From the IMG/VR virus record IMGVR_UViG_3300016665_000082, positions 1 to 34,191 of that record: a stretch of DNA of 34,191 bases; one strand, 5' to 3'. Under the pieces are notes generated by a model that saw only the letters and a program-made list of their open reading frames with translations, ran no database searches and was not told the origin of the DNA. The position numbers were made by a program, and so were the translations under genes. Of this stretch, positions 2,930-33,731 are shown piece by piece (position 1 is the first letter of the stretch; each line of letters begins with the position of its first letter). The stretch comes from a virus.

Positions 2930-2990
2930 ATAATTCCGCATATCTTCGCATCCTTCATTCGCAGATATTGTCTTTTGCATTGTGTATGAT

Positions 2991-3025
2991 CCCTGATCGT
3001 TTCCACGGTCGGGGAATTTTTTTTT
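2991..3025 (+). terminator. intrinsic terminator after the lysis cassette
   Basis: 9-bp stem ccctgatcg / cggtcgggg with loop tttcca, followed by aa + T9. Confidence 0.7.
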
Positions 3026-3043
3026 GTCATATCCCAAAATAAA

Positions 3044-5942: not shown

Positions 5943-5947
5943 CCATT

Positions 5948-9916: not shown

Positions 9917-10169
9917 CCACGCCACCCGTGGCCGGAAGTTTATCGGGATGCGCGGCATGCCTGATATTATCGGGTACGGGATGGATGGCCGGGCGGTGTA
10001 CTGCGAGGTGAAATCGGAAGGGGATCGACTATCGGATGATCAGATCGCGTTCATGGATCGGGCGACGGTTAATGGATGCCAGACATGGATCTGCAAGGTC
10101 GGAGAGCATGGCGGCGCCTACTTAACTACATGGGAGTTTCATCGGAAACAAAATAGCACAAAGGATTGA
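9735..10169 (+). CDS. VRR-NUC (PD-(D/E)xK) nuclease domain protein; 5' boundary uncertain
   Basis: From about 9852: ELTKYAIAHLTHLGFLVWRQNN...GMPDIIGY...VYCEVKSEGDRLSDDQIAFMDRATVNG, the VRR-NUC layout. The only ATGs (9735, 9759, 9780) lie 70-115 nt upstream, in an R/S-rich stretch overlapping 9575..9916. Confidence 0.6.
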   Translation: MATSRIFGMRQKNTRMNRTAGSRPRRSSISSTSFAPSAGELTKYAIAHLTHLGFLVWRQNNHATRGRKFIGMRGMPDIIGYGMDGRAVYCEVKSEGDRLSDDQIAFMDRATVNGCQTWICKVGEHGGAYLTTWEFHRKQNSTKD

Positions 10170-10843
10170 CGCGTTCCGAGATCATCGCCGATATGTATGG
10201 GAATAAGGACGTCGCCGACGCCATCGGGAAGATGGAACCGGAGGCGCTCCGCGATGATCTGCGACAGGAGATATTTCAGGTGTTGTGTGAACTTCCGGAG
10301 GATCGCCTCCTGGAGATGCACCGGGAAGGATGGCTAAAGTGGTTCATCGTCCGGACGATGCTAAACATGATCAAGTCCGATCGATCTACATTTTGGTACA
10401 AATTCCGGCGCCAGTTTGTTGAAGTGTCTGATGAGATGGGACGGGAGCCAGAGGCGGCGGAAGATGACACAAGGGATCAGGGACGCGTCCGGGACGGGGT
10501 GAACGCCCTCCATTGGTACGAAGCGAAACTGATCGAGATCTACGCCGCAAACGGGCAGAACATCGCGAAGATCAGCCGGGAGACGGGAATACCATATCGG
10601 TCACTATTTAAGACGATCAAAAAAGTGAAGGATAAACTTAAAAAGGAAGTACGCGAGGAACGGGCGCCGCCGTCCGTGGCAACGGTCCGACTGTCGCTGG
10701 ATGTGACGATCGAGGTATCCCCATCCGGGGCGGATACGATTCTCGACACAATCGAAACGATGGATGACGCGACGCGGATGATGTTGTCCAGCGCATGCCG
10801 ATTGATACACTACAAAGGGTTCACCATAAAGGAAACGAAATGA
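10166..10843 (+). CDS. sigma-70-family-like transcription factor (region 2 and region 4 HTH)
   Basis: TTG 10166 (or ATG 10193). DLRQEIFQVLCEL...WLKWFIVRTMLNMIKSDRSTFWYKFRR is region-2-like. LHWYEAKLIEIYAANGQNIAKISRETGIPYRSLFKTIKKVKDKLKKE is region-4.2-like. Confidence 0.5.
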   Translation: MTRSEIIADMYGNKDVADAIGKMEPEALRDDLRQEIFQVLCELPEDRLLEMHREGWLKWFIVRTMLNMIKSDRSTFWYKFRRQFVEVSDEMGREPEAAEDDTRDQGRVRDGVNALHWYEAKLIEIYAANGQNIAKISRETGIPYRSLFKTIKKVKDKLKKEVREERAPPSVATVRLSLDVTIEVSPSGADTILDTIETMDDATRMMLSSACRLIHYKGFTIKETK

Positions 10844-14780: not shown

Positions 14781-14781
14781 A

Positions 14782-16719: not shown

Positions 16720-16913
16720 AACGCGCAATCCTGACAATCATTATCGCCATGTCTTTCACGGCATGCTTTGTCCTGCCGAAACCGATGCAGCGCGGCGTCC
16801 TTCGCCCGGTGAAGGCGTATCCGGTGGAACGCCAGAAGGGCAACCGGATCATGTCGATCGGCGTGGCCGCATTTTTTGCCGGGTTCATTTATCTGTATGG
16901 AATCAGAAAATAG
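16716..16913 (+). CDS. small lipoprotein with C-terminal TM segment
   Basis: 65 aa. MKRAILTIIIAMSFTAC is lipobox-like. C-terminal hydrophobic segment IMSIGVAAFFAGFIYLYGI. Confidence 0.5.
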   Translation: MKRAILTIIIAMSFTACFVLPKPMQRGVLRPVKAYPVERQKGNRIMSIGVAAFFAGFIYLYGIRK

Positions 16914-19550: not shown

Positions 19551-19598
19551 TCTTAAAATTATTTTGTGTTATTGTTGTTTCGTATTGTTTGAATGATG

Positions 19599-19606
19599 TA
19601 TATTTG
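19599..19606 (+). promoter_or_regulatory. -7 promoter box TATATTTG (perfect TAnnTTTG)
   Basis: In a 76-nt AT-rich intergenic region, 20 nt before ATG 19627. Confidence 0.5.
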
Positions 19607-19626
19607 TATAACAAAACACAAACACA

Positions 19627-19875
19627 ATGCAAACAATGTACGCCTTCAGACTGCACGCAGAAGTAATCGACGCTAAAATGGCTGAGTATATTTATACTCC
19701 GATTACCGAAATTTTTGAAATTTCTCGTGAAGATTATTTGGCCGATCCGGCCTCCGACTTGTACGACGAAAACGGCAACGGACAGCCCTGCACATTGTGG
19801 GCCTATGATGATTACTATACCGCCGTACTGGCTAAACGTAAGGCCTACGAAAATATCGAACATGTAAACGCTTAA
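19627..19875 (+). CDS. hypothetical 82-aa protein in a self-contained transcription unit (moron-like)
   Basis: It has its own promoter box (19599) and a strong terminator (19897) inside the structural gene block. Confidence 0.6.
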   Translation: MQTMYAFRLHAEVIDAKMAEYIYTPITEIFEISREDYLADPASDLYDENGNGQPCTLWAYDDYYTAVLAKRKAYENIEHVNA

Positions 19876-19896
19876 TCTGTAAAACATAAAAAACGC

Positions 19897-19922
19897 AACC
19901 CGCCCACCGTGGCGGGTTTTTT
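19897..19922 (+). terminator. intrinsic terminator
   Basis: 8-bp stem aacccgcc / ggcgggtt, 6-nt loop, running into T6. Confidence 0.8.
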
Positions 19923-19943
19923 CATGCCAACCTCCGCCGACGC

Positions 19944-19952
19944 CGCTAATTA
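19944..19952 (+). promoter_or_regulatory. late-gene upstream box CGCTAATTA
   Basis: Ends 7 nt before ATG 19960 and directly follows the terminator. Confidence 0.35.
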
Positions 19953-19959
19953 GTGACGT

Positions 19960-21099
19960 ATGGCAATCACAATTCAACAAGCGCCGGAGGCACGCGCGTC
20001 GATGCACGACGACCTTTGGCATGTCGTCACAAGTACGAACACCGGGCAGGACGGGTTCAAATATGTTTTCGACGTTTACGTGGCCGCCGAGCTGGTGGCG
20101 CGTGTTAAACTATTTCCGGATCCCGTGGAGGACTGCGGGGCCTTAAACGCGGGCGCAATCGTCCGTTCTTTCTGGCAGTCATATTTCAAGCCATACACCA
20201 CCCAGACGGCGTTCAGTTTTGATACGAATGATATTTACGTCCCATATACGATCCAGTTCGGGGAGGAATACGGCGGGACGTTATACACGAACCTCACATC
20301 CGCAAATTATGAGGCGTTCAATTTTTACAATCCGATCTTCCGGGACTGGTCCGCGTCATACCTCGACACCTTCAACGGCAAATGGCTGACGTACCGAGAT
20401 CGCTCCACGCTGGAGGTAGGTTTCACGGAAAAGCTGTTCGTGCCGTGGTTCAATTACGGATTTCCGGATGTGGCCGTATCGCTGAAGGTCGCGACCGATG
20501 GCGGCGGCGTTACAACTGGATCGGGTATTCTTTGTGACGCGCTGATAAACTTCGATCTTTCCCCGGCGGCCATCAATGCGTATCTCGGCACTACAAAGGT
20601 GCCATCCACGGCGACGATGTACACCGTCCAGATCGGATCGGGCGACATCGTGACGATCAGGCTGGCATGCAATCGGTACGATACGGAGGTCCTGCATTTC
20701 CTTAATAGTTTGGGCGGATACGAAACCGCCGCCTTCCGCCTGGTGAACAGAGAAACCCGAACGGCGGAGCGTCAATCCTTCCAGCGCCCGGGATGGCAGA
20801 TCTCCGGGGACAGCATGACGCGGTACGATGCGAATAAGCGCCTCTATCCTGGCCGCGTCGATTACGCCGTCCGACAGGCCGTAACCATGTCACTGACGTC
20901 TGACTGGTTATCGGAAACCGATCACAACTGGATGCGGGATCTTATTATGTCGCCGGAGGTATATCTGGAGCGCGGCGGGTACTACTATCCCGTAACGATC
21001 GGAACGACGCAATGGAATGAAAAGATACGCCGGGCGGATAAGCTGTTCAACCTGACGCTGGACGTTAACGTGAAAAATACAATGTCACAACTTCGATGA
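19960..21099 (+). CDS. structural (tail/baseplate region) protein, function unknown
   Basis: 379 aa, ATGA-coupled to the 717-aa tail protein gene. Confidence 0.5.
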   Translation: MAITIQQAPEARASMHDDLWHVVTSTNTGQDGFKYVFDVYVAAELVARVKLFPDPVEDCGALNAGAIVRSFWQSYFKPYTTQTAFSFDTNDIYVPYTIQFGEEYGGTLYTNLTSANYEAFNFYNPIFRDWSASYLDTFNGKWLTYRDRSTLEVGFTEKLFVPWFNYGFPDVAVSLKVATDGGGVTTGSGILCDALINFDLSPAAINAYLGTTKVPSTATMYTVQIGSGDIVTIRLACNRYDTEVLHFLNSLGGYETAAFRLVNRETRTAERQSFQRPGWQISGDSMTRYDANKRLYPGRVDYAVRQAVTMSLTSDWLSETDHNWMRDLIMSPEVYLERGGYYYPVTIGTTQWNEKIRRADKLFNLTLDVNVKNTMSQLR

Positions 21100-23249
21100 G
21101 GACTGAAATATACATCGAAGGCCGCCGGGTCGATCTCTATGACGACCTATCGCTGGAACTGACGTACCAGATCGACGACGTGAAAGAGTTCGGATCGCGG
21201 GAGACGAATTTCTCCAAAACGATCGTCCTGCCCGGCACGGGGCGCAATAACCGACAATTCGGGTACATCTTTGAGTTCGGATCACAGAACGCGTATAATC
21301 CGGATTCGCCGAACATCGACTATAATTTCAACGCCGCAAAGCAGGCCGCCTGCATTGTGTACGTCGATAAGGTGCAGGTGATGAAGGGCGTGGTTCGCCT
21401 CCTGGAGATCGTCCGCACGGGCGATGTGGTGGAATACGAATGCGCGGTATTTGGGGAGCTGGGCGGGTTCGTGCAGGATCTTGGGAACGCAAAGATTGAG
21501 GCGCTCGATTTCAGCCAGTACGACGAGGCCTGGAATATGACGAACATAAAGCGGAGCTGGGAGCCTACATCCGGCATCGTCGTCTCCGGCGTCACGCTGA
21601 CGGGATATTATCCGGCCTCCGGGGTGTTTTATCCGCTCGTCGATTACGGTGGCGTGTCCACCAATAAGCATGACTGGGATTTCCGGGCATTGCGTCCGGC
21701 ATTGTACGTGAAAGAATACCTCCAGAAGATCATCGCGGGCGCCGGGTACACGTATGAAAGCGCGTTCATGGATACGGCCTTTTTTCATCGACTGGTCATC
21801 CCTAACAATCAAAAAACGCTCAAGCGCCAGACTACGCTCGGCCTATCCGCGACCGCGCAGGTGTACACGTACACAAATGTCGGGAACGTCCGATGGGACG
21901 CTGTATCCCTGGGGGATTTCACGAAGAACGCGCCTGGTACGATCTTCACCTACAACTCCGCCACACCGTTCACGGGTACGCTATCCGTGACGCTGTTCGG
22001 GGAGGTATTGGAATCCGGGACATCGCTGGAGATCGAGATCCGGAAGAACGGCGCGGCGATATATCTACACGTCAATAGTCCGAACGCGGGCGACCTGGTT
22101 GATCTGGCGGTGGATCTCCCGAATCAGACATTTAACCAGAACGACACGCTATCCGTTTACATCGACACCGACATTCGGGGACTGGGCATATCCATAACCG
22201 AGGGCGCCATCCTATTGAACAGCGCGACGCCTACCTTCGTCACGCTTGGGTATAACGACACGATCGCAATCAATGACACGATCCCGCGCGGGGTATTCCA
22301 GCGGGATTTCTTTGCCTCGGTCGTAAAAATGTTCAATCTATACGTGACGGAGGATCCGAACCGAGATCGACATCTGATCATCACGCCATACATCGATTAC
22401 TACCTCACCGGATCGGATACGCTCTTGGACGTGGACGATATTGGCACGACGCTAATGGTGGACGACCAGTACGATCTCATCATCGCGCCTGGTGTGGATA
22501 GTTCCATCGACTGGACGCATAAGCTCGACAGATCTTCCCCGATACGCCTCCGGCCAATGTCGGAGCTGAACGGGCGTTATTTTGAGTATAAGTATAAAAC
22601 CGACGCCGATTACTATAATGAACAATACCGCATAAAGTACGGCCAAGGGTACGGGGATTATCTGGAGGATACCGGGTTCGTTTACGCAAAGGAAAAACAG
22701 ACGGCGGAGCTGATATTTTCCGCCACGCCGATCGTCGGATATGTCGGGGAGGATAAACCCGTATCCACGGTATTCAAATTATCGGGCACGACGGAGGATA
22801 AAACAGAACATAACATCCGGATCTTCCAGATCAAAAAAGTGACAGGCCGGAGCGCTTACGCCGTAAAAAATGGCGGGACGAATATTGAAAGCGGCCTCAC
22901 CGCGTACGGATGGGGCGGCCATCTGGATGATCCGATCACGCCGCAAGTGGATCTAAATTTCGGCACGCCGTCGGAGCTGTATTTCGATCTGGCCGCGCAA
23001 TATCCATCGACCAACCTTTTCACGGCCTTCTGGTTCGGATGGGTTGCCGAGATCACGGATAAAGATAGTAAACTGATGACGGCATCTTTCCGCCTGATCG
23101 AGATGGATATCATGGATCTGAATTTCGCGCGCCTGATCTATATCGACGGAACGCTTTGGCGCCTGAACCGGATCATCGACTATAACCCGATCAGCAATCA
23201 AACGACGAAGGTTGAATTGCTCAAATTGATGGAAACGACATACGAATAA
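21096..23249 (+). CDS. large tail/baseplate protein (distal-tail or host-specificity-like)
   Basis: 717 aa. N-terminus MRTEIYIEGRRVDLYDDLSLELTYQIDD...FSKTIVLPGT resembles phage tail-family N-termini. Adjacent to the tape-measure-like gene. Confidence 0.45.
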   Translation: MRTEIYIEGRRVDLYDDLSLELTYQIDDVKEFGSRETNFSKTIVLPGTGRNNRQFGYIFEFGSQNAYNPDSPNIDYNFNAAKQAACIVYVDKVQVMKGVVRLLEIVRTGDVVEYECAVFGELGGFVQDLGNAKIEALDFSQYDEAWNMTNIKRSWEPTSGIVVSGVTLTGYYPASGVFYPLVDYGGVSTNKHDWDFRALRPALYVKEYLQKIIAGAGYTYESAFMDTAFFHRLVIPNNQKTLKRQTTLGLSATAQVYTYTNVGNVRWDAVSLGDFTKNAPGTIFTYNSATPFTGTLSVTLFGEVLESGTSLEIEIRKNGAAIYLHVNSPNAGDLVDLAVDLPNQTFNQNDTLSVYIDTDIRGLGISITEGAILLNSATPTFVTLGYNDTIAINDTIPRGVFQRDFFASVVKMFNLYVTEDPNRDRHLIITPYIDYYLTGSDTLLDVDDIGTTLMVDDQYDLIIAPGVDSSIDWTHKLDRSSPIRLRPMSELNGRYFEYKYKTDADYYNEQYRIKYGQGYGDYLEDTGFVYAKEKQTAELIFSATPIVGYVGEDKPVSTVFKLSGTTEDKTEHNIRIFQIKKVTGRSAYAVKNGGTNIESGLTAYGWGGHLDDPITPQVDLNFGTPSELYFDLAAQYPSTNLFTAFWFGWVAEITDKDSKLMTASFRLIEMDIMDLNFARLIYIDGTLWRLNRIIDYNPISNQTTKVELLKLMETTYE

Positions 23250-23250
23250 C

Positions 23251-25359
23251 ATGGCGGAAGAAAAGGTAGGTATAAAGTTAGAGGTCGATGGATCGCAGGC
23301 AACGAAGGCCGTCGGCAATGTCCGCAAGGAAATAAAGGAGGCCACCGTCGCGCTGCAACAGGCGCAGGCACAGTTCGGGGAATATAGCGCGGAGGCGATC
23401 ACGGCGGCAAAGCGGGTGGCGGAACTACGCGACCGGGTATCCGAGGCCGCGGAGACTGCGCGCCTGTTCGATCCGGGGCAAAAGTTCGCAGCGTTCAGCG
23501 GTGCATTGAACGCCGTGGCCGGTGGATTCTCCGCCGTTCAGGGGGCGCTGGGCCTTGTAGGTGTAGAATCCGAAGAGGTGCAGAAGCAGCTCCTGAAAGT
23601 TCAGTCCGCGCTCGCATTGTCACAGGGGCTGAACGTGATCACCGACAGCGCAAAAGATTTCCAGCGCCTGGGGGCGGTCATAAAACAAACGGAGACCTTC
23701 CAGCGTGGCCTCGCCGCCGCCAACGTCGTCACATCGACGGCATTGCAGGCCGTTGGCGTATCCGCTACAACTACGTCGGTCGGATTCAAGGTCCTTCGCG
23801 GCGCCATCGTCGCGACGGGCATCGGGGCGCTCGCCGTCGGGCTGGTATTGTTGGTGCAGAATTTCGATAAGGTCCGGGACGCCGTTTATCGATTCATTCC
23901 GGGCCTCAAAACAGCGACGGAGTTCATCGGGGGCCTGGTGCAATCCGTGACTGATTTCATCGGTATAACGTCCGAGGCGGATCGGGCAACGGCGAAACTG
24001 ATCGCGGACAATTCCGCCCGCATAAAGGCCGCGGAGCGGGATCTGGAGCTGAATGGCGACAAGTACGATCAATACACCCAGCGGAAGATAAAAGCGAATA
24101 TCGACTACCGGAAATCGCTGGAAGAACTGACGAAAGATGAAACGCTATCTGTTCAGGAGCGCGAACGGTTCATCGCCCAGGCACGGGCGAAAGCCGACCG
24201 GGAAATCGCGCGAGCGGATGAAGATCGCAATAACGCGGCGGAGGAACGGCGAAAAGCGGATCAGAAAAAAGCGGATGACGCGGCAAAGGTATCGGCGGAC
24301 AAGCGAAAAGCGGAAGCGGATCGTCTGGCCGGGATCGAAAAGCAGGCGCTCGATGAATTGCAGCGCCTTCGGGACGAGGCCGCCATCGCTGCAATAAAAG
24401 ACGAGGATCAGCGACAGATCAAGGCGATCGAAATCGCGCTGCAACGCGAACAGGATCGGATCAAGGCGCTGGAGATATCCGAAACCACGCGAACCGAATT
24501 ACTGAAGGCGTCCACGGAAAAAGCCGATCGGGAGATCCAAGCGATCAACCAAGCGCGAATCGACGCGGAGATAAAAGCGGCGGAAGATCAAGCGGCCAAA
24601 CTTGCGGAAATCGAGGCCAAACGGATCGAGGACGAAACTACCGCACGGCGCGAAGCGGCGCAACTACGCATCGAGGAGACATTCCGCGAAATCGAAAATG
24701 AGGCGCTTACCTATGACGCCCGGCGGGCATTGATCGATCAAGGTATCGCGGATCTACAACGGTACTATGAGGCCGGAACAATCGGCGAACAACAATACAC
24801 CCAGACGCGCCGGGAACTGACGATGGAACGGATCGCGCTCGATCAGGCCGAACGGGACGCAAAAATACAGGTCGCGCAGCAAATCGCCGGGGCGATCGTT
24901 CAACTGGGGAGCCTGTTCAAACAAGGCACCGCGGCGGCGAAGGTCGCGGCATTGTCGGAGATCGCCATCAATACCGGTGTAGGATTGATCCAAGGCCTCG
25001 ACATCGCGCAAAAGTCCGCGAAGGCGACCGGACCAGCGGCGGCGTTCGCGTTCCCTATATTTTACGCCACACAGATCGCGGCGGTACTGGGCGCGGCGGC
25101 GAAAGCCAAGCAGGTACTCCGAAGCGATACCGGGGCCGGGGGCGGTGGCATATCCGCCACATCCGCGCCGCAATTTTCCGCGCCATCCAACACCGCGCCA
25201 ATCGCGCCTCCACGGCCACAGGTCGCAACGACGGAACTGGGGCCACAATCCATGCAGGGCATAAATGTGGCCAGCACCCGGGCGTATGTCGTGGAGAGCG
25301 ATATAACAGGCGCACAGGAAAGGATCACACGCCTTAACCGCGCGGCACGATTGGGCTGA
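23251..25359 (+). CDS. tape measure-like protein
   Basis: 702 aa. Long Ala/Glu/Arg/Lys coiled-coil core, flanked by Gly/Ala-rich hydrophobic segments (AFSGALNAVAGGFSAVQGALGLVGV, GAIVATGIGALAVGLVLLV, PAAAFAFPIFYATQIAAVLGAAA). Confidence 0.55.
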   Translation: MAEEKVGIKLEVDGSQATKAVGNVRKEIKEATVALQQAQAQFGEYSAEAITAAKRVAELRDRVSEAAETARLFDPGQKFAAFSGALNAVAGGFSAVQGALGLVGVESEEVQKQLLKVQSALALSQGLNVITDSAKDFQRLGAVIKQTETFQRGLAAANVVTSTALQAVGVSATTTSVGFKVLRGAIVATGIGALAVGLVLLVQNFDKVRDAVYRFIPGLKTATEFIGGLVQSVTDFIGITSEADRATAKLIADNSARIKAAERDLELNGDKYDQYTQRKIKANIDYRKSLEELTKDETLSVQERERFIAQARAKADREIARADEDRNNAAEERRKADQKKADDAAKVSADKRKAEADRLAGIEKQALDELQRLRDEAAIAAIKDEDQRQIKAIEIALQREQDRIKALEISETTRTELLKASTEKADREIQAINQARIDAEIKAAEDQAAKLAEIEAKRIEDETTARREAAQLRIEETFREIENEALTYDARRALIDQGIADLQRYYEAGTIGEQQYTQTRRELTMERIALDQAERDAKIQVAQQIAGAIVQLGSLFKQGTAAAKVAALSEIAINTGVGLIQGLDIAQKSAKATGPAAAFAFPIFYATQIAAVLGAAAKAKQVLRSDTGAGGGGISATSAPQFSAPSNTAPIAPPRPQVATTELGPQSMQGINVASTRAYVVESDITGAQERITRLNRAARLG

Positions 25360-25389
25360 TCGCCCTAATTATGTTTTAAAATAGAACAA

Positions 25390-26448
25390 ATGGACAACCT
25401 TCCAATATTTGAACTGGTCATAAGCGAAGATGAGGCCGCGGAAACCGAGGTTAATTTTATCGCGCTCGTAAAGAAACCCGCCATCGAGCGGAATTTTATC
25501 GCGTTCGCGCAGGAGGATTTCGTCGAACCGGGACCGACCGAAACGCAGGACGAGTTCATCGGACGCTGTATCCCGGCAATGATCGGGGAGGGGAAAGAAC
25601 AGGATCAGGCCGCCGCGATCTGCTATTCTAAATGGGAGGACCGGGAGCGCATGGCGTCCGAATTTCAGGAAACGATCACCGACATCCCGGACGATGTCCG
25701 CGCTAATGCCCGGAACGCGGTCGAATGGGCGGAGAAAAATGGATGGGGGTCATGCGGCACACCCGTTGGTAAGCGTCGGGCATCCCAGCTCGCAGAACGG
25801 GGAGGGGCGGTATCGCTCGACACCGTCCGTCGCATGTACTCCTATCTTTCCCGTCACGCCGGGGATCTGGACAATTCCAAAGGGTACGCGGACGGATGCG
25901 GAAAGCTCATGTATGACGCATGGGGCGGGAAATCCGGGTTGTCATGGGCGCGCAATGTCCTGCGCCGGGAAAACATGCACGCTTTCGCGATCCAGGACGA
26001 GGACGAGCGGATCGTATCCGGGCCGCTGATGGTTCCGGGAAAAAAGATCTACCGCCGTGACGGAGACAATGAATACATGGTGACGTTCAGCGCCGAAACC
26101 ATCAAGGCGATCGCCATGAAATTCATGCGGAAGCGGTACCAGGGGAACGTGAACATCATGCACGACGGAGAACAGGTCGTCCCGGGGGCGGTATTGTTTG
26201 AGACATGGATAAAGGACACGAAGCGCGGCGTCGGTGGAATGGCCGGATATGACGATCTCCCGGATGGGACATGGTTTGGATCGATTAAGATCGAGGATGA
26301 CGCGACATGGGCCGATGTAAAGGCCGGGAAGCTCCAAGGGTTCAGCGTCGAGGGGGTATTCGGATATGTCCGGGAACGCGAAACCGAAATCGCAGCGGAT
26401 CGCATGATGTCCGCAATCATCGACATCCTCGGACAGGTACGGCAATAA
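25390..26448 (+). CDS. XkdF-like putative prohead serine protease domain protein
   Basis: N-terminal VNFIALVKKPAIERNFIAF and C-terminal VSGPLMVPGKKIYRRDGD...NIMHDG...DGTWFGSIKIEDDATWADVKAGKLQGFSVEG match my memory of Peptidase_S78_2/XkdF. An insert of about 150 aa lies between them. Confidence 0.55.
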   Translation: MDNLPIFELVISEDEAAETEVNFIALVKKPAIERNFIAFAQEDFVEPGPTETQDEFIGRCIPAMIGEGKEQDQAAAICYSKWEDRERMASEFQETITDIPDDVRANARNAVEWAEKNGWGSCGTPVGKRRASQLAERGGAVSLDTVRRMYSYLSRHAGDLDNSKGYADGCGKLMYDAWGGKSGLSWARNVLRRENMHAFAIQDEDERIVSGPLMVPGKKIYRRDGDNEYMVTFSAETIKAIAMKFMRKRYQGNVNIMHDGEQVVPGAVLFETWIKDTKRGVGGMAGYDDLPDGTWFGSIKIEDDATWADVKAGKLQGFSVEGVFGYVRERETEIAADRMMSAIIDILGQVRQ

Positions 26449-26458
26449 ATTACGCGAA

Positions 26459-26468
26459 CCGCTAAATA
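26459..26468 (+). promoter_or_regulatory. late-gene upstream box CCGCTAAATA
   Basis: Ends 6 nt before ATG 26475. Confidence 0.3.
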
Positions 26469-26474
26469 ACACCG

Positions 26475-26825
26475 ATGGCAGGCAATTATTTACCAGCGAC
26501 ATATAACATAAAGCTCACCAAGGGCAACACATGGCAGACCGTTTTCGCGCTGTTCAAAGATAGCGCGGCGATCAACCTATCGGCGGCGGAGGTACGCGTC
26601 CAGATCCGCCGGAAGGCGTCCAGCACGACGGCGGAGGTAACGATCACGGAGGCGGACGGGATTACCGTCGGCGGGGCGTCATCGAACGAGATCACCATAT
26701 CGAAGCGCGTGGACATCGCCGCCGGAGATTATGTGTGGGATCTACTCGTTATCAACGCCGGGGTGTATAAAACCTATATCGGCGGGAAGATCGAAATCGT
26801 GGACGAAGTAACCGTACCAGCATGA
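26475..26825 (+). CDS. hypothetical virion-region protein (116 aa, beta-rich)
   Basis: ATGA-coupled to the next gene. Confidence 0.55.
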   Translation: MAGNYLPATYNIKLTKGNTWQTVFALFKDSAAINLSAAEVRVQIRRKASSTTAEVTITEADGITVGGASSNEITISKRVDIAAGDYVWDLLVINAGVYKTYIGGKIEIVDEVTVPA

Positions 26826-27325
26826 GCATAGAGGTAAACATAACCGAGGATAAGGTCGAAATCTTCGACGGCACACAGGCCGCATATCTGGCCGCCGTGG
26901 ATACGCAGGACCAGACCAACGCTGGGGCGACATCGGTTAATCTGATGAAGTTCCGCACGACCGAAATATCCCGCGACATCTCGATCGTATCGGACAGCCG
27001 GATCACGATGGCGAAGGCCGGGATCTATAATATTCAATTTTCAGCGCAATTCGATAAGACCGACGGCGGGGATGATATCGTCCACGTTTGGCTATTAAAG
27101 AACGGGCAGAACGTGGCGAATACGAATACCGAGATGACGCTGGTCGGCAATAACGGAAAGCACGTCGCCGCGTGGAATTTCGTCGTCCAGGCATCCGCGG
27201 GCGACTATTACGAGCTGGCCTGGCACAGCACGGACACGTCGGTATTTATCAACTATGTGGCGCCGCAATCAACGCCGACGCGGCCCGCCATCCCGTCGGT
27301 GATCCTGACGGTTACTCAAGTCTAA
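26822..27325 (+). CDS. C1q/TNF-like jelly-roll domain protein (decoration or receptor-binding candidate)
   Basis: AGIYNIQFSAQF...VHVWLLKNGQNV...AAWNFVVQASAGDYYELAWHS fits the C1q/BclA-type globular head pattern. Confidence 0.45.
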   Translation: MSIEVNITEDKVEIFDGTQAAYLAAVDTQDQTNAGATSVNLMKFRTTEISRDISIVSDSRITMAKAGIYNIQFSAQFDKTDGGDDIVHVWLLKNGQNVANTNTEMTLVGNNGKHVAAWNFVVQASAGDYYELAWHSTDTSVFINYVAPQSTPTRPAIPSVILTVTQV

Positions 27326-27342
27326 ACAAAACAAAACATAAA

Positions 27343-27573
27343 ATGAGCAATCTTTTCTCCCTCAACCTCCGCGACCTGGTGAAGGGCGCCGTCGTCGCTG
27401 CATTGGCCGTTATCGCCGCCGCTGTTACCACATCCCTCGAAGCCGGGGCCGTCCCGACGCTGGAGCAGTGGAAGGGTATCGGATGGTCCGGCCTGATGGC
27501 GGGCGCCGCCTATCTGCTGAAAAACCTGTTCACCAACAGCAACGATGAAATCCTGAAACCGGAGGCGAAATGA
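27343..27573 (+). CDS. small 2-TM membrane protein (holin-like)
   Basis: Internal ATG of track ORF 27172..27573. 76 aa with TM segments AVVAALAVIAAAVTT and WSGLMAGAAYLL and a charged C-terminus. Confidence 0.45.
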   Translation: MSNLFSLNLRDLVKGAVVAALAVIAAAVTTSLEAGAVPTLEQWKGIGWSGLMAGAAYLLKNLFTNSNDEILKPEAK

Positions 27574-27603
27574 TCGCCTATATGGTAACAATTAACCACA
27601 TAA

Positions 27604-27610
27604 CTAAATA
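27604..27610 (+). promoter_or_regulatory. late-gene upstream box CTAAATA
   Basis: Ends 8 nt before ATG 27619. Confidence 0.25.
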
Positions 27611-27618
27611 ACGGTAAG

Positions 27619-28194
27619 ATGACAGCAAAAGAAGCACTCGATAAGATCCGCGCAATGTTCGCGGATATGCCACCCGCTCCCGCGCCGGAGCCGGAACCCG
27701 CCAAGATGGAGGCGAAAGAATATGTCCTCGAAGGCGGCCAGAAGGTACTTGTATCTGAACTCGAAATAGGCGGTATGGTTCAGCTGGTCGATGACGCTGG
27801 CAACACCGCGCCCGCTCCCGCTGGCGATCACAAGTTCGCCGATGGCACCACGATCACCGTCGGGGAAAATGGTCTGATCACCGCGATCACCGTTCCCGCC
27901 GTTGAACCGGAAATGCCTGCAGAACCTGGTGAAGATATGTCCGCGAAGTTCGCCGCCATCGAAGCCGATAACGCCGCGCTCCGCGCTGCCATCGACGCAC
28001 AGGCCGCAAAGTTCGCCGATGAACTGGTCGCCACTAACGATCGCCTTCGCACGCTGGCCGATGTGTTCAGCGCCATGATGCAGACGCCCGGCGCCGATCC
28101 GATCGGGAAGCCGCATCACAATTTCGAGCAAACGGAAAGTAAAGACGAAAAATTGAAGCGGATCGCTGACCGTATCGCCAGCCTCCGCAAATAA
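27619..28194 (+). CDS. scaffolding protein candidate
   Basis: 191 aa, immediately upstream of the capsid gene. Pro/Ala/Glu linkers and a helical C-terminus AKFAAIEADNAALRAAIDAQAAKFADELVATNDRLRTLADV. Confidence 0.5.
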   Translation: MTAKEALDKIRAMFADMPPAPAPEPEPAKMEAKEYVLEGGQKVLVSELEIGGMVQLVDDAGNTAPAPAGDHKFADGTTITVGENGLITAITVPAVEPEMPAEPGEDMSAKFAAIEADNAALRAAIDAQAAKFADELVATNDRLRTLADVFSAMMQTPGADPIGKPHHNFEQTESKDEKLKRIADRIASLRK

Positions 28195-28220
28195 TCACCA
28201 ACAAATAAAAATCGACAAAA

Positions 28221-29174
28221 ATGGCATTTTCACTCGGTACATTAACCGCCTATGTTGAGCAGAACGAACAACTGCTCGTCGCCGCCTCCGTCCTCGGTCC
28301 CAAGACCGCCGCATTGATCCAGTCCCAGGGCAACGTCATGGTGGGCGTTAAGTCCGCGGAAACGATCAACATCATGGACACGGACGCCATCTTCCAGGCG
28401 GGCGGTACATGCGGATTCACGACCTCCGGCACCACCACGATCACCCAGCGCACGGTAACCGTCGGTAAGTTCAAGGTGAACGAGGCCATCTGCCCGAAGG
28501 ACCTGGAGGCCTACTATCTCCAGAAGGCGCTGCCCGCCGGATCGCGTTACGATACGATCACCTTCGCCGCTGACTACACTGGGAAGAAGGCCGAAAAGAT
28601 CGCCTCCCAGCTTGAAACTGCCATCTGGCAGGGTGACACCACATCGCTGAACGCCAACCTTAACAAGTTCGACGGATTCATCGAGCTGATCAAGGATGCA
28701 GGCGCCAGCGTGGTGAACGCGAACAGCGTGGCCTATTACGGATCAGTAGAGACGGCGATCAACGATACCACCGTGGTAAACGTTTTCGACGCCGTTTACA
28801 AGGCCATCCCGGCCCAGGTGATCGACAAGGACGACGTCAAGATCTTCTGCGGAATGGATGTATTCCGGACGCTGACGATCAAGATCAAAAATGCCAACCT
28901 GTTCCATTATCAGGTGGACGCGAAGCCGAACGCATCGTTTTTCCTCCCAGGAACAGCGATCGAAGTGGTCGGCACTCCGGGCCTGAACGGCACGAATAAG
29001 ATCTACGCCATGCGCGTGTCTAACATGTGGCTGGGTACCGATCTGCTGGATGAGGACCAGAACCGCTGGGAGCTGTTTTTCGCCCGCGAAGCCGATCAGG
29101 TTCGGTTCGTATCCGAGTTCAAAATGGGCGTAAATTTCGCCTTCCCGACCGAGATCGTGAAGTTCGAGATCTGA
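28221..29174 (+). CDS. major capsid protein
   Basis: 317 aa, following the scaffold-like gene, no Cys-rich or TM features, and followed by a GC-rich hairpin. Assignment rests on position, size and general resemblance only. Confidence 0.65.
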   Translation: MAFSLGTLTAYVEQNEQLLVAASVLGPKTAALIQSQGNVMVGVKSAETINIMDTDAIFQAGGTCGFTTSGTTTITQRTVTVGKFKVNEAICPKDLEAYYLQKALPAGSRYDTITFAADYTGKKAEKIASQLETAIWQGDTTSLNANLNKFDGFIELIKDAGASVVNANSVAYYGSVETAINDTTVVNVFDAVYKAIPAQVIDKDDVKIFCGMDVFRTLTIKIKNANLFHYQVDAKPNASFFLPGTAIEVVGTPGLNGTNKIYAMRVSNMWLGTDLLDEDQNRWELFFAREADQVRFVSEFKMGVNFAFPTEIVKFEI

Positions 29175-29182
29175 CGATAATG

Positions 29183-29202
29183 GGGCGGCCTTCGGGTCGC
29201 CC
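29183..29202 (+). terminator. GC-rich hairpin with TTCG tetraloop after the capsid gene (no T-run)
   Basis: gggcggcc-ttcg-ggtcgccc, 8-bp stem with one G-U pair. Confidence 0.45.
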
Positions 29203-29230
29203 TACATCATAACCGCAAAATAATTAACGA

Positions 29231-29743
29231 ATGGCATGCGCCTTAACACAAGGTTACACGTTCGACTGCAAGGATAGCGTTGGCGGCCTGAAGGCCGTCT
29301 GGTTCATCTCGGCAAACGACGTGACGACCGTAACGGAAACCTCCGGACTGGTGACGACGATCACCAAGGCCGCTGGTAAAGTTTTTTACAAATATCAGCT
29401 CGTCCGGAATACGTCATCCTTCACGGAGACCATCGCTGGATCCGTCGAAAATGGCACCGTCGTTTACAACCAGGAACTCCTGATCGTGATTAACAAAATG
29501 CAGGTATCCGTCCGCAACGAAATTTTGTTGCTGGCACAGAACAACCTCATGGCCGTTATCGAGGATCAAAACGGTAAGTATTGGCTGGCCGGTAAATTGA
29601 ACGGATTGGATCTCACTGCTGGCACCGCCGGCACCGGACTGGCACAATCCGACCGTAACGGTTACTCCCTCACATTCACGGGTGGAGAGCGCGCCTTGGC
29701 GCCGGAAGTATCCAGCGGGATCATTGCCGGACTGACATCATGA
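29231..29743 (+). CDS. major tail (tube)-like protein, tentative
   Basis: 170 aa. GGLKAVWFI...FTETIAGSVENGTVVYNQEL...VIEDQNGKYWLAGKLNGLDL...GYSLTFTGGE resembles tail-tube families from memory. Followed by a strong terminator. Confidence 0.4.
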   Translation: MACALTQGYTFDCKDSVGGLKAVWFISANDVTTVTETSGLVTTITKAAGKVFYKYQLVRNTSSFTETIAGSVENGTVVYNQELLIVINKMQVSVRNEILLLAQNNLMAVIEDQNGKYWLAGKLNGLDLTAGTAGTGLAQSDRNGYSLTFTGGERALAPEVSSGIIAGLTS

Positions 29744-29789
29744 TGTATCTTCGCTGAATCGTTGGACATTATAGGGATTATGGGTTTGA

Positions 29790-29822
29790 GCCTCCACCTT
29801 TCCAGGTGGGGGCTTTTCTTTT
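29790..29822 (+). terminator. intrinsic terminator
   Basis: 10-bp stem gcctccacct / aggtgggggc, loop ttcc, followed by ttttctttt. Confidence 0.8.
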
Positions 29823-29842
29823 CGGTGCAAACGTCGCGCCGT

Positions 29843-29851
29843 CGCTAATTA
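29843..29851 (+). promoter_or_regulatory. late-gene upstream box CGCTAATTA
   Basis: Ends 3 nt before ATG 29855 and 6 nt before ATG 29858. It follows the terminator by about 20 nt. Confidence 0.35.
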
Positions 29852-29854
29852 TGA

Positions 29855-30238
29855 ATGATGATCAATCTCACGACTGGAACGATTACAAATGTGCGGGTAA
29901 CGCTGACGGAGCGCACCACGATACCGTCGGCCTCCTATCTTTTCCGGTTTGTGCAAAGGGCAACTAATCGAGAAATTCGAGTAGTTCGCCGCGGTACGGA
30001 CGACCTATCGCCATATCCGTCCAGGTACAACCTTTTCGCCATCGACGTCGATCAGATCTTTTGTGGCATCATCGGCGAATATCAGTACTACATCTACGAA
30101 CAAGCGAGCGCGTCGAATACCGAACTGGATCTCACGGGCGCGCTCATTGAACAGGGACTGGCGCGTCTGAACGCTCCGGCGGATGATCAATTTACATTCA
30201 AGGCATACCAGCCGGATAACATTTATACAACGCCATGA
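29855..30238 (+). CDS. hypothetical virion-region protein (127 aa)
   Basis: ATGA-coupled to the portal gene. Confidence 0.55.
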   Translation: MMINLTTGTITNVRVTLTERTTIPSASYLFRFVQRATNREIRVVRRGTDDLSPYPSRYNLFAIDVDQIFCGIIGEYQYYIYEQASASNTELDLTGALIEQGLARLNAPADDQFTFKAYQPDNIYTTP

Positions 30239-32223
30239 CAGCGGAGGACATCATCGTACTAAATTTTGCGGAGGCCAAACAACCGGAATACCGGGAGAAA
30301 AAAGGCGCGGGGTACATCGAGTTCGGATTCCATAACGACTATCCGGATTACCTGATCGACCTGTACCGCAAAAGCGCGAAACATAACGCGATCATAAAGG
30401 GTAAGGTCAATTATATCGCTGGCAACGGATGGAAATCCGGCGAACCGGATCCGGCGGCGGACGCATTTATCGCCGCGCCGAACGGGTACGAATCCCTGGC
30501 GGAGCTGACGCGGAAGGTATCGATGGACATCGAAATTTTCGGAGGGGCTTACCTCGAAATCATCTGGTCGATGGTGGGCGGGCAGATCTCCAGCATCACC
30601 CACATCGACTATACAAAGATCCGGACGTCCGCGGATAACACGTCCTTTTGGTACAAGCCGACGGGATGGAAAGAGCGCAAAGGCGACATCATTCCCATCC
30701 CGGCGTTCAATACGAAAGTCCGTGAGGGACGCCAGATCCTCTATATCCGGGAATACCAGCCGGACCTTGAAGCCTACGCCCTGCCGGGGTACATGGGTTC
30801 GCTGAACTATATCGAATCCGACATCCAGGTATCCCAGCATGTATTGAGTAACGCCCAATCCGGATTCTCGGCGTCGAAACTGATCACCCTCCCGAACGGG
30901 GAGCCGTCGCCAGACGAAAAGCGGAAGATCGACCGGAAATTCCAGGACAACTTTTCGGGCGCCGATGGCAAAAAATTCATCCTTTCATTCGTAAACGATC
31001 CGGCACGGAAACCGATCATCGACGACCTGGGCGCGTCCGATCTCACAAAGGAGGATTTCGGGCGGGTGGATGCGATGATCCAGCAGAACATTTTTGCGGG
31101 CCACCAGCTCACCAGTCCGTCGCTGTTCGGCATCGCTGAACCGGGAAAATTAGGATCACGTACCGAAATGCGGGACGCTTACGAAATTTTCAAAAACACA
31201 TACGTAAACGACAAGCAGCAACATCTGGAGCAGACATTCAACCGTCTGGCAAAGATCAACGGGGCGACGTCGGAAATTTCCATCATCCCGGTTGAACCGA
31301 TCAGTTACGAACTATCCGAGGCCACAATCGTATCCGTCGCACCGCGGGAATGGATCCTCGAAAAGGCGGGGATCGACGTCACGAAATACCAGACCGAACC
31401 AGCCGCCGCTCCGGTCGATGGCACCACTCCACAGGCCGCCGCATCCGTCACGGTGAACGACAACCTGAAATCAATGACGGGCCGCCAATGGCAGCAAATG
31501 GCGCGGATCGTCCGGGAGTTCTCGAAGGGCAAGATTACGCGCGATCAGGCCGGAATGATGTTGAAAAGCGGATACGGCCTATCCGACGACGAGGTTATGA
31601 CGATGCTGGGCGAACCGGAGCAATTCGGCGCGAACGCGACGGAGGACGACATCATCGGCGCCTTCGCGGAATACGGCGAAACGACGCAGAACTTTTCCGT
31701 CGTGAAAAATTCACGCGTCACGTTTGCGGACATTCAGGAGGAAGCCGATAAGCAGATCCTGAACATCCTCCAAAAACAACCGCTAACGCCGTCGGACGAC
31801 ATCGCGAAGGCGCTGGGCGTTGATGTATCCGAGGTAACGCGTAGGATCGACCGGATGACGCGTCTGGGGGTATTGATCGAGGCAAAAGGCGGAGGTCTGA
31901 AACCGTCGGCGCCCGTCTCCGAACTGGTGGACGAACCGACGCGGACGACGTTTGAAATCCGATATTCCTACGAATGGAAACCGGAGGTACCAGTCGGCCA
32001 GCGTGACACGACAGAGCACCCGTCGCGGCCATTCTGCAAAAAATTGATGTCGCTGGATCGTTTCTATACTCGCCGCGAAATAGAGACCCTATCCCAGCGC
32101 CTGGGATACAGCGTATTCGACCGCGGGGGCGGATGGTGGGGGCAGGGTGCAGGATTACCGCCGTCGCCGTCATGTCGGCATGAATGGAGATCAAATGTAG
32201 TTATCCGTAAACGTAAAGCATGA
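30235..32223 (+). CDS. portal protein fused to a winged-helix segment and a MuF/SPP1 gp7-like head-morphogenesis domain
   Basis: 662 aa. N-terminal ~370 aa are portal-like (YPDYLIDLYRKSAKHNAIIKGKVNYIAGNG ... FSASKLITLPNG ... EIFKNTYVNDKQQHLE). A MarR-like segment ILNILQKQPLTPSDDIAKALGVDVSEVTRRIDRMTRLGVLIE follows. The C-terminal RPFCKKLM...PPSPSCRHEW is the MuF-type Cys/His motif. Confidence 0.75.
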   Translation: MTAEDIIVLNFAEAKQPEYREKKGAGYIEFGFHNDYPDYLIDLYRKSAKHNAIIKGKVNYIAGNGWKSGEPDPAADAFIAAPNGYESLAELTRKVSMDIEIFGGAYLEIIWSMVGGQISSITHIDYTKIRTSADNTSFWYKPTGWKERKGDIIPIPAFNTKVREGRQILYIREYQPDLEAYALPGYMGSLNYIESDIQVSQHVLSNAQSGFSASKLITLPNGEPSPDEKRKIDRKFQDNFSGADGKKFILSFVNDPARKPIIDDLGASDLTKEDFGRVDAMIQQNIFAGHQLTSPSLFGIAEPGKLGSRTEMRDAYEIFKNTYVNDKQQHLEQTFNRLAKINGATSEISIIPVEPISYELSEATIVSVAPREWILEKAGIDVTKYQTEPAAAPVDGTTPQAAASVTVNDNLKSMTGRQWQQMARIVREFSKGKITRDQAGMMLKSGYGLSDDEVMTMLGEPEQFGANATEDDIIGAFAEYGETTQNFSVVKNSRVTFADIQEEADKQILNILQKQPLTPSDDIAKALGVDVSEVTRRIDRMTRLGVLIEAKGGGLKPSAPVSELVDEPTRTTFEIRYSYEWKPEVPVGQRDTTEHPSRPFCKKLMSLDRFYTRREIETLSQRLGYSVFDRGGGWWGQGAGLPPSPSCRHEWRSNVVIRKRKA

Positions 32224-32825
32224 GCCGAAAAATACTATTCATAACGCCGAACACGATCAAGGAACGGACGGGCCTTCATGCCAACGTGGACGAAAAATTG
32301 ATCAGCCCGGAGATCATGACGGCGCAGGATATGTTTATCCATCCCGCCCTGGGGACGGCGCTATACAACCGCCTCCTGGACGGGATCGAAAATAACAATC
32401 TAACCGACGCGGAGGAAGGATTGATAACGGGGTACATATCTGACACGCTGGTGTACTACGTCCTTTCTGAATTGCCCGTCGGTTTGTCGATGCAGTTTTA
32501 TAATAAGGGACTGATCCGGAAAAGCGGGGAAGGGCAGACCGAGCCATCCATGCAGGACATGATCGACGTCGCGAACAGGTACAAGGCGCGGGCGGAATTT
32601 TACAAGGAACGCCTGATCCTGTATGTCAAGGAAACTGCGTCGAAAGGCGTACTATTTCAGGAGTACATCAACGCCGGATCCGGGGTGGATACGATTCATC
32701 CGGAGCGCCAGGCATACACGATATCCGTACATCTCGACGAGTACGCGGATCGCTACCGTCGCCCAGCCGGACGCGGGAGATGGGAGGATATGTATCAAGG
32801 TAATTCGCCGAATTGCGATTGCTAA
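32220..32825 (+). CDS. head-tail adaptor/connector-like protein, tentative
   Basis: 201 aa directly after the portal gene (ATGA overlap). Confidence 0.4.
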   Translation: MSRKILFITPNTIKERTGLHANVDEKLISPEIMTAQDMFIHPALGTALYNRLLDGIENNNLTDAEEGLITGYISDTLVYYVLSELPVGLSMQFYNKGLIRKSGEGQTEPSMQDMIDVANRYKARAEFYKERLILYVKETASKGVLFQEYINAGSGVDTIHPERQAYTISVHLDEYADRYRRPAGRGRWEDMYQGNSPNCDC

Positions 32826-32901
32826 ATGAAAGGGAATAAAACGTACAGCGAACGAAACCAGAACCGCCTCCGGGCCTATCTGGAAAAGCAGGAACGGACA
32901 C

Positions 32902-33348
32902 ATGACACTAAATCAACTGATCGACAAAATAACAGCGCTCGGGAACGCTCACGAAATGATCGAGACCGTATGGAACGGTCCCGTAATGGATCGACTGGCG
33001 CTCGGTGACGTAACGTATCCGCTGATGACGTTCGACGTGAACACCGCGCGGATCGTCGGATCTGACGCGTCGTATGATTTCCAGATGTTTTTTATAGACC
33101 GCCTCGTCATTGACAGCGAAAACGAGCGCGAGGTGCAGTCCGATCAGATGTCAATACTTCAGGATATCATCGCACAACTCCGCTGGCCGGGATGGGATTG
33201 GACGGTGGACGGCACGGTACAGGTGCAGATCATAACGGACACGACGCCCGATCTTTTGGCTGGGGTGGCCGCGACGATTACGATCACATTGCCATATCAG
33301 TCCGATCGTTGTCAGGTGCCGACGGAATTAATTTATCCCGCTAATTAA
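32902..33348 (+). CDS. hypothetical neck/tail protein (148 aa)
   Basis: ATG ORF in the structural block. Confidence 0.55.
   Translation: MTLNQLIDKITALGNAHEMIETVWNGPVMDRLALGDVTYPLMTFDVNTARIVGSDASYDFQMFFIDRLVIDSENEREVQSDQMSILQDIIAQLRWPGWDWTVDGTVQVQIITDTTPDLLAGVAATITITLPYQSDRCQVPTELIYPAN
33339..33347 (+). promoter_or_regulatory. late-gene upstream box CGCTAATTA
   Basis: Overlaps the stop of 32902..33348 and ends 6 nt before ATG 33354. Confidence 0.3.
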
Positions 33349-33353
33349 GACAA

Positions 33354-33731
33354 ATGCCCGGGAAAAAAATAAATCAACTCGACGTCCGGACGCCAACGCT
33401 CGCCGATCTCATGCTGATCGGTGATCCATCGACTGGATATAGCTATAAGGCCGCGCTATCCGCGCTGATCACTTTTGTAACGGCAAACATCACGACGGCA
33501 AAAAAAAGGTTTGTCGTTGGAGATGTAGGATTCCCTGGAGATGGCGCGTCATCGTGGACGGATTCGGATTTCACAGGAGCGACCGTATGGGTGTATCGTA
33601 ATGGATTGCTATTAGACTGGGCTGATCCGGGCGATGGTTCATCATATTACATTCATAGCGGGAATACGATTACATTTTACCCGGCGCTCGCAACCTTTGA
33701 AAAGATACAAGCTTTAGTCATAAAAATATGA
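33354..33731 (+). CDS. tail fibre proximal/adaptor-like protein
   Basis: 125 aa. N-terminus KINQLDVRTPTLADLMLIGDPSTGYSYKAALSAL is a motif I recognise from phage fibre N-termini. Confidence 0.45.
   Translation: MPGKKINQLDVRTPTLADLMLIGDPSTGYSYKAALSALITFVTANITTAKKRFVVGDVGFPGDGASSWTDSDFTGATVWVYRNGLLLDWADPGDGSSYYIHSGNTITFYPALATFEKIQALVIKI

Follow-up and report, generated by a model that had tools for sequence, protein, structure and literature searches.

In a 34,191-nucleotide (nt) stretch of viral DNA (IMG/VR record IMGVR_UViG_3300016665_000082, positions 1 to 34,191; hereafter, the window), a short AT-rich box recurs directly upstream of the start codons of late genes. The analysis described here makes it likely that this box is one half, the -10-type element, of a bipartite late promoter specific to the phage, which is read by a divergent extracytoplasmic function (ECF)-like phage sigma factor and gives near-leaderless transcription starts. 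The reader is probably the phage's own sigma-like protein, encoded at 10166..10843 on the + strand. A preliminary description of this DNA had suggested a -10/-7-like promoter with leaderless or near-leaderless mRNAs, and the suggestion is now supported, at the level of sequence, by an upstream partner element, a step at the predicted start site, selectivity for particular genes and the placement of the sites. The -35-like partner element upstream of the box had been overlooked in that description.

Enrichment of the box upstream of late genes

The 9-mer CGCTAATTA is located on the + strand at 19944, 29843 and 33339. These three copies compare with 0.19 expected, and none of 100 shuffles reached three, confirming the over-representation that had been claimed for it. 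The shorter pattern CTAAWTA occurs eight times on the + strand, and six of the eight are in late intergenic spacers, at 19946, 25365, 26462, 27604, 29845 and 33341. Sixteen genes start beyond 19.9 kb. When the 30 nt upstream of each were scanned, CTA[AT][AT]TA was found in six of the regions; composition-preserving shuffles of the same 16 regions averaged 0.28, and none of the 20,000 exceeded 4.

Not all the copies listed in the preliminary description stood up to comparison with relatives. Those at 19944, 25362, 26459, 27604, 29843 and 33339 were retained, whereas three others were not. The copy at 29221 (aTAATTA) is without the invariant C and without the upstream partner element, and is missing even in the closest, 96%-identical relatives; for the copy at 10856 (CGCTAATTTA), none of the relatives has an equivalent after its sigma gene; and the copy at 3596 (CTAATTT), which is located within an early gene and is without the final A, was left unranked by a position weight matrix (PWM) trained on relatives. 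For the copy at 29845, which had been assigned to a start at either 29855 or 29858, the relatives align on ATGATCAATCTC, favoring 29858 and not 29855.

A bipartite element with a start-site signature

No match was found in GenBank phages (INPHARED), by megablast with the late region or by tblastn with the sigma-like and capsid proteins. IMG/VR contains more than 500 related contigs, typically of 33-35 kb, and family statistics were taken from 38 non-redundant loci, 444 kb in total. Among the 105 permutations of CTATTTA, none is as frequent on the coding strand of these loci as CTATTTA itself, with 115 occurrences against a median of 38 and against 29 on the other strand, and CTAATTA occurs 72 times versus 19. 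The distance from the end of the box to the ATG of open reading frames (ORFs) of at least 60 amino acids (aa) has a sharp maximum, at 5-6 nt when the box is CTAATTA or CTATTTA and at 8 nt when it is CTAAATA; control permutations of the box gave flat distributions.

The logo of 98 box-anchored sites showed an upstream element, G-n-Y-A-A-A/C, at -20 to -15. Allowing this element to slide in an expectation-maximisation alignment of the 98 sites gave t-G-G-Y-A-A-a, with the A's present in 96 and 83 of the sites, and a spacer to CTAWTTA of 14 nt in 55 sites, 13 nt in 16 and 15 nt in 15 (13-15 nt in 86 of the 98). The consensus of the bipartite element is therefore tGGYAAa, 14±1 nt, CTAWTTA. A strict regular expression for it, which recovers part of the sites and was used for strand and specificity counts only, had 17 hits on the + strand and none on the - strand in 11 genomes, where about 0.1 per genome was expected. 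When a PWM trained without the window was applied to it, the top four positions were 27604, 26462, 29845 and 19946, and those at 33341 and 25365 were lower.

Downstream of the box, the logo has a purine at +6 in 96 of the 98 sites and a pyrimidine at +5 in 87. This step is no echo of the ATG, because it is kept in the 49 sites whose box-to-ATG spacer is other than 5 nt (+6 purine in 47, +5 pyrimidine in 40, both in 40). Boxes far from gene starts have pyrimidine-purine at +5/+6 in 25 of 108 cases, and among relatives the bases at +1 to +4 vary freely while +5/+6 are fixed. Transcription start sites are usually marked by such a step, pyrimidine then purine, at a constant spacing from the -10-type element. 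Relative to the start predicted in this way, the box would span about -12 to -6, and the upstream element would lie at about -33 to -27. The predicted leader is 0 nt for a spacer of 5 nt (49 sites), 1 nt for a spacer of 6 nt (24 sites) or, at further sites, 2-3 nt, so that 73 of the 98 family sites would have a leader of 0-1 nt.

Putative late promoters and terminators of the window

Putative late promoter 1 (19925..19959, +) consists of the -35-like TGCCAAC at 19925-19931, a 14-nt spacer and CTAATTA at 19946-19952, and is ranked fourth by the PWM. Its predicted start, G19958, would give a 2-nt leader before ATG 19960, and the box is kept upstream of the homologues of this gene in 6 of 15 distinct relatives. 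Directly before it is an intrinsic terminator at 19897..19918 (+; 8-pair stem and U-run, -14.3 kcal/mol), the end of the upstream unit. Another intrinsic terminator, at 29788..29815 (+; 12-pair stem and U-run, -21.3 kcal/mol, z-score -2.4), separates the gene 29231-29743 from the promoter at 29845; the preliminary description had placed strong terminators before these two copies, and both are present.

The first rank of the PWM, with a score of 19.4, belongs to the promoter at 27583..27618 (+), composed of TGGTAAC at 27583-27589, a 14-nt spacer and CTAAATA at 27604-27610. The predicted start is A27616, with a 3-nt leader before ATG 27619, and the capsid gene at 28221-29174 is an internal gene of this unit. 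Homologues of g27619 are preceded by TGGTA(A/C)A and CTAAATA or CTATTTA in 29 of 33 relatives. At the second-ranked site (26440..26474, +), CGGCAAT at 26440-26446 overlaps the stop codon of the preceding gene and is followed, after a 15-nt spacer, by CTAAATA at 26462-26468; the predicted start is G26474, leaving a 1-nt leader before ATG 26475. The third-ranked site (29825..29857, +) has GTGCAAA at 29825-29831, a 13-nt spacer and CTAATTA at 29845-29851. Its start is predicted at G29857, 1 nt before ATG 29858, and the portal gene belongs to its unit.

The remaining two sites are weaker. In the promoter at 33317..33353 (+; PWM score 10.7) the box CTAATTA at 33341-33347 overlaps the stop codon of 32902-33348, and the -35 region is weak or atypical, being poorly assigned with a 17-nt spacer; the predicted start, A33353, would give a 1-nt leader before ATG 33354. 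The promoter at 25343..25389 (+; score 8.6) has cGGCACg and the box CTAATTA at 25365-25371, no clean pyrimidine-purine step at +5/+6, and a leader before ATG 25390 that would be about 12 nt. At the orthologous position upstream of g25390, 20 of 29 relatives have GGCAAG-N13-CTAWTTA, mostly 5-6 nt before the ATG. Predicted leaders are thus 0-3 nt at five of the six sites of the window. A further terminator at 2990..3026 (+; 11-bp stem and U9), after which the host-type early boxes at 3040 and 3069 are located, probably ends the late region wrapping round from the end of the window.

Selectivity of the box for particular genes

Upstream of the homologues of g29858, the box was found in all 45 distinct relatives; in every one it is 5-7 nt from the ATG and is preceded by a terminator hairpin. 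The order at this site is hairpin, short element (GTGCAAAC, GTCCAAAC, GGTAAAA or TGCAAAA), about 13-14 variable bases and box, the last being CTAATTA in GC-richer relatives and CTATTTA in AT-rich ones. Homologues of g26475 have the box in 12 of 13 relatives and those of g33354 in 14 of 21. In the same comparison it was never found upstream of homologues of the capsid gene (0/34), g21096 (0/19), g23251 (0/15) or g32902 (0/29), and was nearly missing upstream of those of the portal gene (1/39) and of the gene at 32220 (1/33). This presence or absence by gene indicates that the box marks particular gene starts and not start codons in general.

The sites are located on the coding strand only, at the heads of units, before selected genes and after terminators. 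In the window, ATG-proximal boxes are confined to the structural module after the large terminase gene, and in complete relatives of middle or high GC content most of them likewise follow the terminase gene; the few at low coordinates in these relatives are tentatively read as the wrap-around of a circularly permuted genome. Many relatives have a further box just after the terminase gene. Among the more distant sigma-bearing phages, the contigs for P0266, P0198, P0272 and P0265 are short or cover mostly early regions.

A divergent ECF-like sigma factor as candidate reader

The gene at 10166..10843 (+), for which an alternative start at 10193 gives a 216-aa form (P0001), probably encodes a divergent two-domain ECF-like sigma factor, as judged from the evidence below. 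It had been proposed earlier as a sigma-70-like partner of the box. An ECF-like fold and the presence of the gene throughout the relatives agree with this candidacy, whereas the sigma-70 label itself was not recoverable by Pfam on the window protein. The match to a PHROG sigma family is marginal. There are 249 close homologues, many on contigs of about 34 kb and some named sigma24 by JGI, and a profile search placed about 2,200 clusters at 50% identity in the sigma-like clade. The conserved core of about 160-170 aa contains an invariant DDLRQE.F motif, which we take to resemble sigma region 2.2, and a C-terminal helix-turn-helix. About half of the homologues (alignment A1) continue after this region-4-like helix-turn-helix with a C-terminal extension of about 55 aa (residues ~170-225), predicted as a long helix, while the others stop right after the helix-turn-helix.

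In the AlphaFold2 model, whose mean pLDDT is 73, residues 72-101 form a disordered, low-confidence linker between two helical domains, and the modeled protein would thus have the two-domain architecture without regions 1.1 and 3. The best matches in a Foldseek search of PDB were almost all ECF sigmas covering both domains, namely SigL (6dv9_F, E = 1.9e-3), SigE, SigH and AlgU; the full-length alignments to these four span about 180 columns, with probabilities of 0.8-1.0 and E-values from 2e-3 to 0.1. Against isolated region 4 structures (2h27, 3hug and 5fgm), the model gave TMt of 0.7-0.76 and root-mean-square deviations of 1.6-2.1 Å. The structural neighbors in BFVD include phage proteins annotated as sigma24 or ECF, among them the ECF sigma of Cronobacter phage GAP52, a phiEco32-like phage.

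Sigma70_r4_2 was the most frequent Pfam hit among 68 diverse homologues (11 of 68, best E = 4.5e-6). Among 28 homologues, only one had a hit to Sigma70_r2 and four had one to Sigma70_ECF. The region 4 helix-turn-helix is consequently supported by the fold and by hits of homologues, with the window protein itself below the Pfam threshold. A profile of diverse homologues matched SigW over the full length (residues 11-167, E = 0.023); diversity of the alignment was needed, since the sequence-profile search of PDB with the alignment of close homologues returned noise only.

The sigma-like gene was present in 564 related stretches, compared with 577 for the late gene 29231. It lies within an operon of the early/middle region, with no late box nearby. 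Ten proteins were scanned, the largest two without annotation (717 and 702 aa) among them, and no other RNA polymerase domain was found. The sigma is taken as the probable reader because it co-occurs with the box family-wide and because a promoter that is not host-like needs a specificity factor. As for the -35 element, copies in the window include GGTAAC, GCCAAC and GCAAAC, and the GGYAA(A/C) of the family ends in A more often than in C. The -35 element of ECF promoters contains AAC.

Host-type promoter boxes of the early region

TAHHTTTG, the -7 box of Bacteroidota, is over-represented in the window (17 versus 7.6 expected). All ten copies on the + strand are at or before 19606, several of them before early genes, while the late boxes begin at 19946; after 19606 no + strand TAHHTTTG was found, and TTTG is in none of the six late boxes. 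The distinction drawn previously between the late box and the TAnnTTTG boxes therefore holds. The host box of Flavobacterium johnsoniae occupies -12 to -5, which leaves 4-5 nt before the start, and 87% of the leaders in that species are longer than 10 nt (PMC6847099); in F. psychrophilum about 5.5% of mRNAs are leaderless (PMC9723704). Since leaderless mRNAs are rare in these Flavobacterium examples, the late units of the phage would be atypical for the phylum.

Three host-type sites deserve description. The box TAAATTTG at 1062-1069 ends 4 nt before ATG 1074 and, given the box-to-start distance of F. johnsoniae, would yield a leaderless transcript from a host-type promoter. Two tandem TAAATTTG boxes, 9 nt apart, are located at 14778-14794 (+) upstream of the methylase/terminase block and may be a strong middle promoter. 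Within 19551-19918, where the early/middle block gives way to the first putative late promoter, there is an 82-aa gene (19627-19875) equipped with a host-type promoter (TATATTTG at 19599) and a bidirectional terminator. Its product had no family hit. The gene was considered as an alternative late regulator and rejected, as it is missing from relatives at that position.

Other features of the genome

The window has a GC content of about 53%, and all its plausible genes are on the + strand. No Shine-Dalgarno sequences were found in it, and many starts are preceded by A-rich leaders of the type acacaATG. The left part has replication and modification genes, including those of a VRR-NUC protein and a Lin1244-like protein. 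The early/middle region encodes an NAD-dependent sugar epimerase/dehydratase (8524-9555), a group-1 glycosyltransferase (11577-12629), a ParB-N-fused DNA methylase (13252-14406) and a second N6/N4 methylase (15112-15957), which suggests modification of DNA or surface sugars. A tRNA-Phe with anticodon GAA is located at 5948-6021 (+) in the early region, and because it overlaps the mechanically called ORF 5741-6040, this ORF is probably no gene. The large terminase (TerL) is encoded at 16876-18078. From about 19.9 kb onward structural genes follow, with a tape-measure-like protein, an XkdF-type protease, the capsid-like protein (28221-29174) and the portal (30235-32223).

In a scan of GTDB, one match was found, a 32.9-kb contig binned with a Chitinophagaceae metagenome-assembled genome, which is a weak hint to the host. 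The single site visible on this contig, terminator-CTATTTA-5nt-ATG, agrees with the promoter model. Together with the TAnnTTTG boxes, this relative points to Bacteroidota hosts.

Directly after the capsid gene is a hairpin at 29181-29204 (+; -20.4 kcal/mol, z-score -4.0) without a U-run. Essentially all relatives (L001-L080) have a hairpin at this spot, differing in sequence; its role may be that of an attenuator or that of a 3′ structure stabilising the capsid mRNA. The short ORF 32826-33008 (+), beginning MKGNKTYSERNQNRLRAYLEKQ, overlaps the start of 32902-33348 in a different frame. Its coding sequence is kept across relatives up to the ATG of the next gene, and several AT-rich relatives have long A-runs at this position. 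Either a small gene overlapping the next one or a site of frameshifting could account for it. The last ORF, 33728-34191 (+), runs off the end of the window, and its ATG overlaps the stop codon of 33354-33731 (ATGA). Its start, MKQLIFILIAIIGVSQAQT, resembles a signal peptide. The ORF open from position 1 (9-1064) is in another frame than 33728-34191 if the ends of the window are simply joined.

Discussion

According to the proposed scheme, host-type TAnnTTTG promoters would serve the early/middle region, which includes the sigma gene 10166-10843. Host core RNA polymerase carrying the phage ECF-like sigma would then bind the tGGYAAa-14±1-CTAWTTA promoters and begin transcription 6 nt after the box, at the purine that follows 5 nt. 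Because the box is 5-8 nt before the ATG, late transcripts would start at the AUG or 1-3 nt before it, and these short-leader mRNAs would be translated by a leaderless mechanism. Downstream genes of each unit, such as the capsid gene, would keep ordinary A-rich leaders of the Bacteroidota type.

Several observations weigh against this scheme. The 10166-10843 protein has no significant Pfam hit, the E-values of the fold search in PDB reach only 2e-3 to 0.1, and the global TM-scores are low (about 0.27-0.35). The link between the sigma and the box is circumstantial, being their co-occurrence in the same family. ECF sigmas usually recognize a -10 element of the CGT type (PMC9723704), which the box CTAWTTA is not. 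The -35 regions are weak at several copies (33341 and 25365), and, with about 14-15 nt, the spacer is shorter than that usual in ECF promoters. The start site is predicted from sequence statistics, and the counts overstate the significance because related phages do not provide independent orthologous sites; nonetheless, the bases at +1 to +4 vary among them and +5/+6 are fixed. Finally, in some AT-rich relatives the box is 11-20 nt from the ATG at the same orthologous promoters. The promoter function thus looks primary, and the leaderless geometry is frequent and not obligatory.

The weakness of the sequence-level sigma signal leaves some room for the idea that the boxes are promoters read by a host sigma, which would be either an ECF factor or the housekeeping one acting on a changed -7 box, and that the phage protein is an activator binding GGYAA or has no role. 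The region-4-like helix-turn-helix, taken alone, also resembles DNA binders of the LysR/GerE type, and the late box shares TA..T with TAnnTTTG at a similar distance to the predicted start (PMC6847099). We nevertheless consider this unlikely. The late box lacks the nearly invariant TTTG, and the positions of the two box types on the coding strand do not overlap. The best structural matches span both sigma domains and not the helix-turn-helix alone. Furthermore, the promoter is kept across relatives of 34-57% GC, whose hosts presumably differ, and the gene for the phage protein occurs all through this family.

Proximity to start codons (3-8 nt) in a phylum without Shine-Dalgarno pairing might also suggest that the box acts in RNA, as a start-associated signal for translation initiation or as the site of a translational regulator, similar to the start-associated sequences of some mycobacteriophages. 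This is very improbable, considering that most late genes are without the box, including the highly expressed capsid gene (0/34), that the orthologous box is 11-20 nt from the ATG in some relatives, and that the pyrimidine-purine step is fixed to the box and not to the ATG. The partner element 14 nt upstream is often within the preceding gene or right after a terminator, an arrangement that is sensible on DNA and not on a processed RNA. Slighter still is the chance that the boxes are module-boundary or recombination sequences, or simply stop-codon-rich AT spacers. CTAATTA and CTAAATA do contain TAA, one late copy overlaps a stop codon (33346-33348), and the early copies at 1669 and 2926 overlap stop codons too, but the commonest variant, CTATTTA, is free of stop codons and yet the top permutation. 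Composition-matched shuffles gave 0.28 sites against the six observed, and a boundary sequence would not be expected to keep a constant distance to the elements on both its sides.

Phage sigma factors with cognate late promoters are known already, and SPO1 and T4 provide sigma switches of the same logic as the phage-specific late promoter proposed here. T4 late promoters (TATAAATA) are used by gp55 together with gp33 and the gp45 clamp; they have no -35 element, and gp55 is without region 4. The present system is similar to that of T4 in its AT-rich late -10 element resembling TAAATA, in the many copies before late genes and in a phage protein of the sigma family. It differs in its spaced upstream element and in the region-4-like domain of the protein, and is accordingly not of the T4 type.

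Another system for comparison is phiEco32, whose ECF-like sigma gp36 has its own middle/late element, tAATGTAtA (PMC4331800). As in that phage, a small ECF-type phage sigma would here redirect the host core to an AT-rich -10-type element before middle/late genes. Unlike the single TAATGTATA element of phiEco32, CTAWTTA is accompanied by the GGYAA partner; moreover, no sequence similarity was detectable, and the hosts here are of the Bacteroidota type. To our knowledge, systematic leaders of 0-3 nt are not a described feature of phiEco32.

The geometry of the late starts has a parallel in Thermus phage phiYS40 (and P23-45), in which most middle/late mRNAs are leaderless and the -10 element abuts the start codon (PMC3594737). 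In Deinococcus-Thermus hosts, such abutting -10 elements are common (PMC12340547). The present phage is like phiYS40 in having a -10-type box abutting the start codon, and unlike it in its bipartite promoter, in the phage sigma that probably reads it and in belonging to a host phylum where leaderless mRNAs are rare. In phiYS40, host sigma A reads promoters of the -10-only or extended -10 type.

Housekeeping promoters of Bacteroidota have TTTG at -33 and TAnnTTTG at -7 (PMC6847099), and it is this type that the early region of the phage uses. The late box is AT-rich as well and has a TA dinucleotide at a similar position to the start, whereas it lacks TTTG, has an invariant C before the TA and a GGYAA partner, and occupies a different part of the genome. 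New in our results are the promoter consensus and the strong divergence of the sigma clade, as well as the host phylum and the pairing of a phage sigma with leaders that are systematically 0-3 nt long; literature searches returned no description of such promoters in Bacteroidota phages. A broader claim, that a large and so far unrecognised clade of ECF-like phage sigmas drives a dedicated late program in which most units begin within 3 nt of the AUG, is put forward tentatively, as we hold it to be more doubtful than true.

As far as the searches made can tell, this is the first defined phage-specific promoter, with a candidate sigma, for this large, uncultured family of Bacteroidota-type phages, and it points to a sigma clade missed by domain databases. 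The promoter map also fixes gene starts and operon structure, as for the start at 29858 and not 29855, and an orthogonal pair of sigma and promoter would be a useful genetic part for Bacteroidota. The model predicts leaderless late messages in a phylum with unusual translation initiation and few leaderless mRNAs. If this is true, the phage routes the expression of its structural genes through leaderless (70S-type) initiation, in hosts that do without Shine-Dalgarno pairing and rarely make leaderless mRNAs, and this route could privilege phage messages late in infection, as has been proposed for Thermus phage phiYS40.

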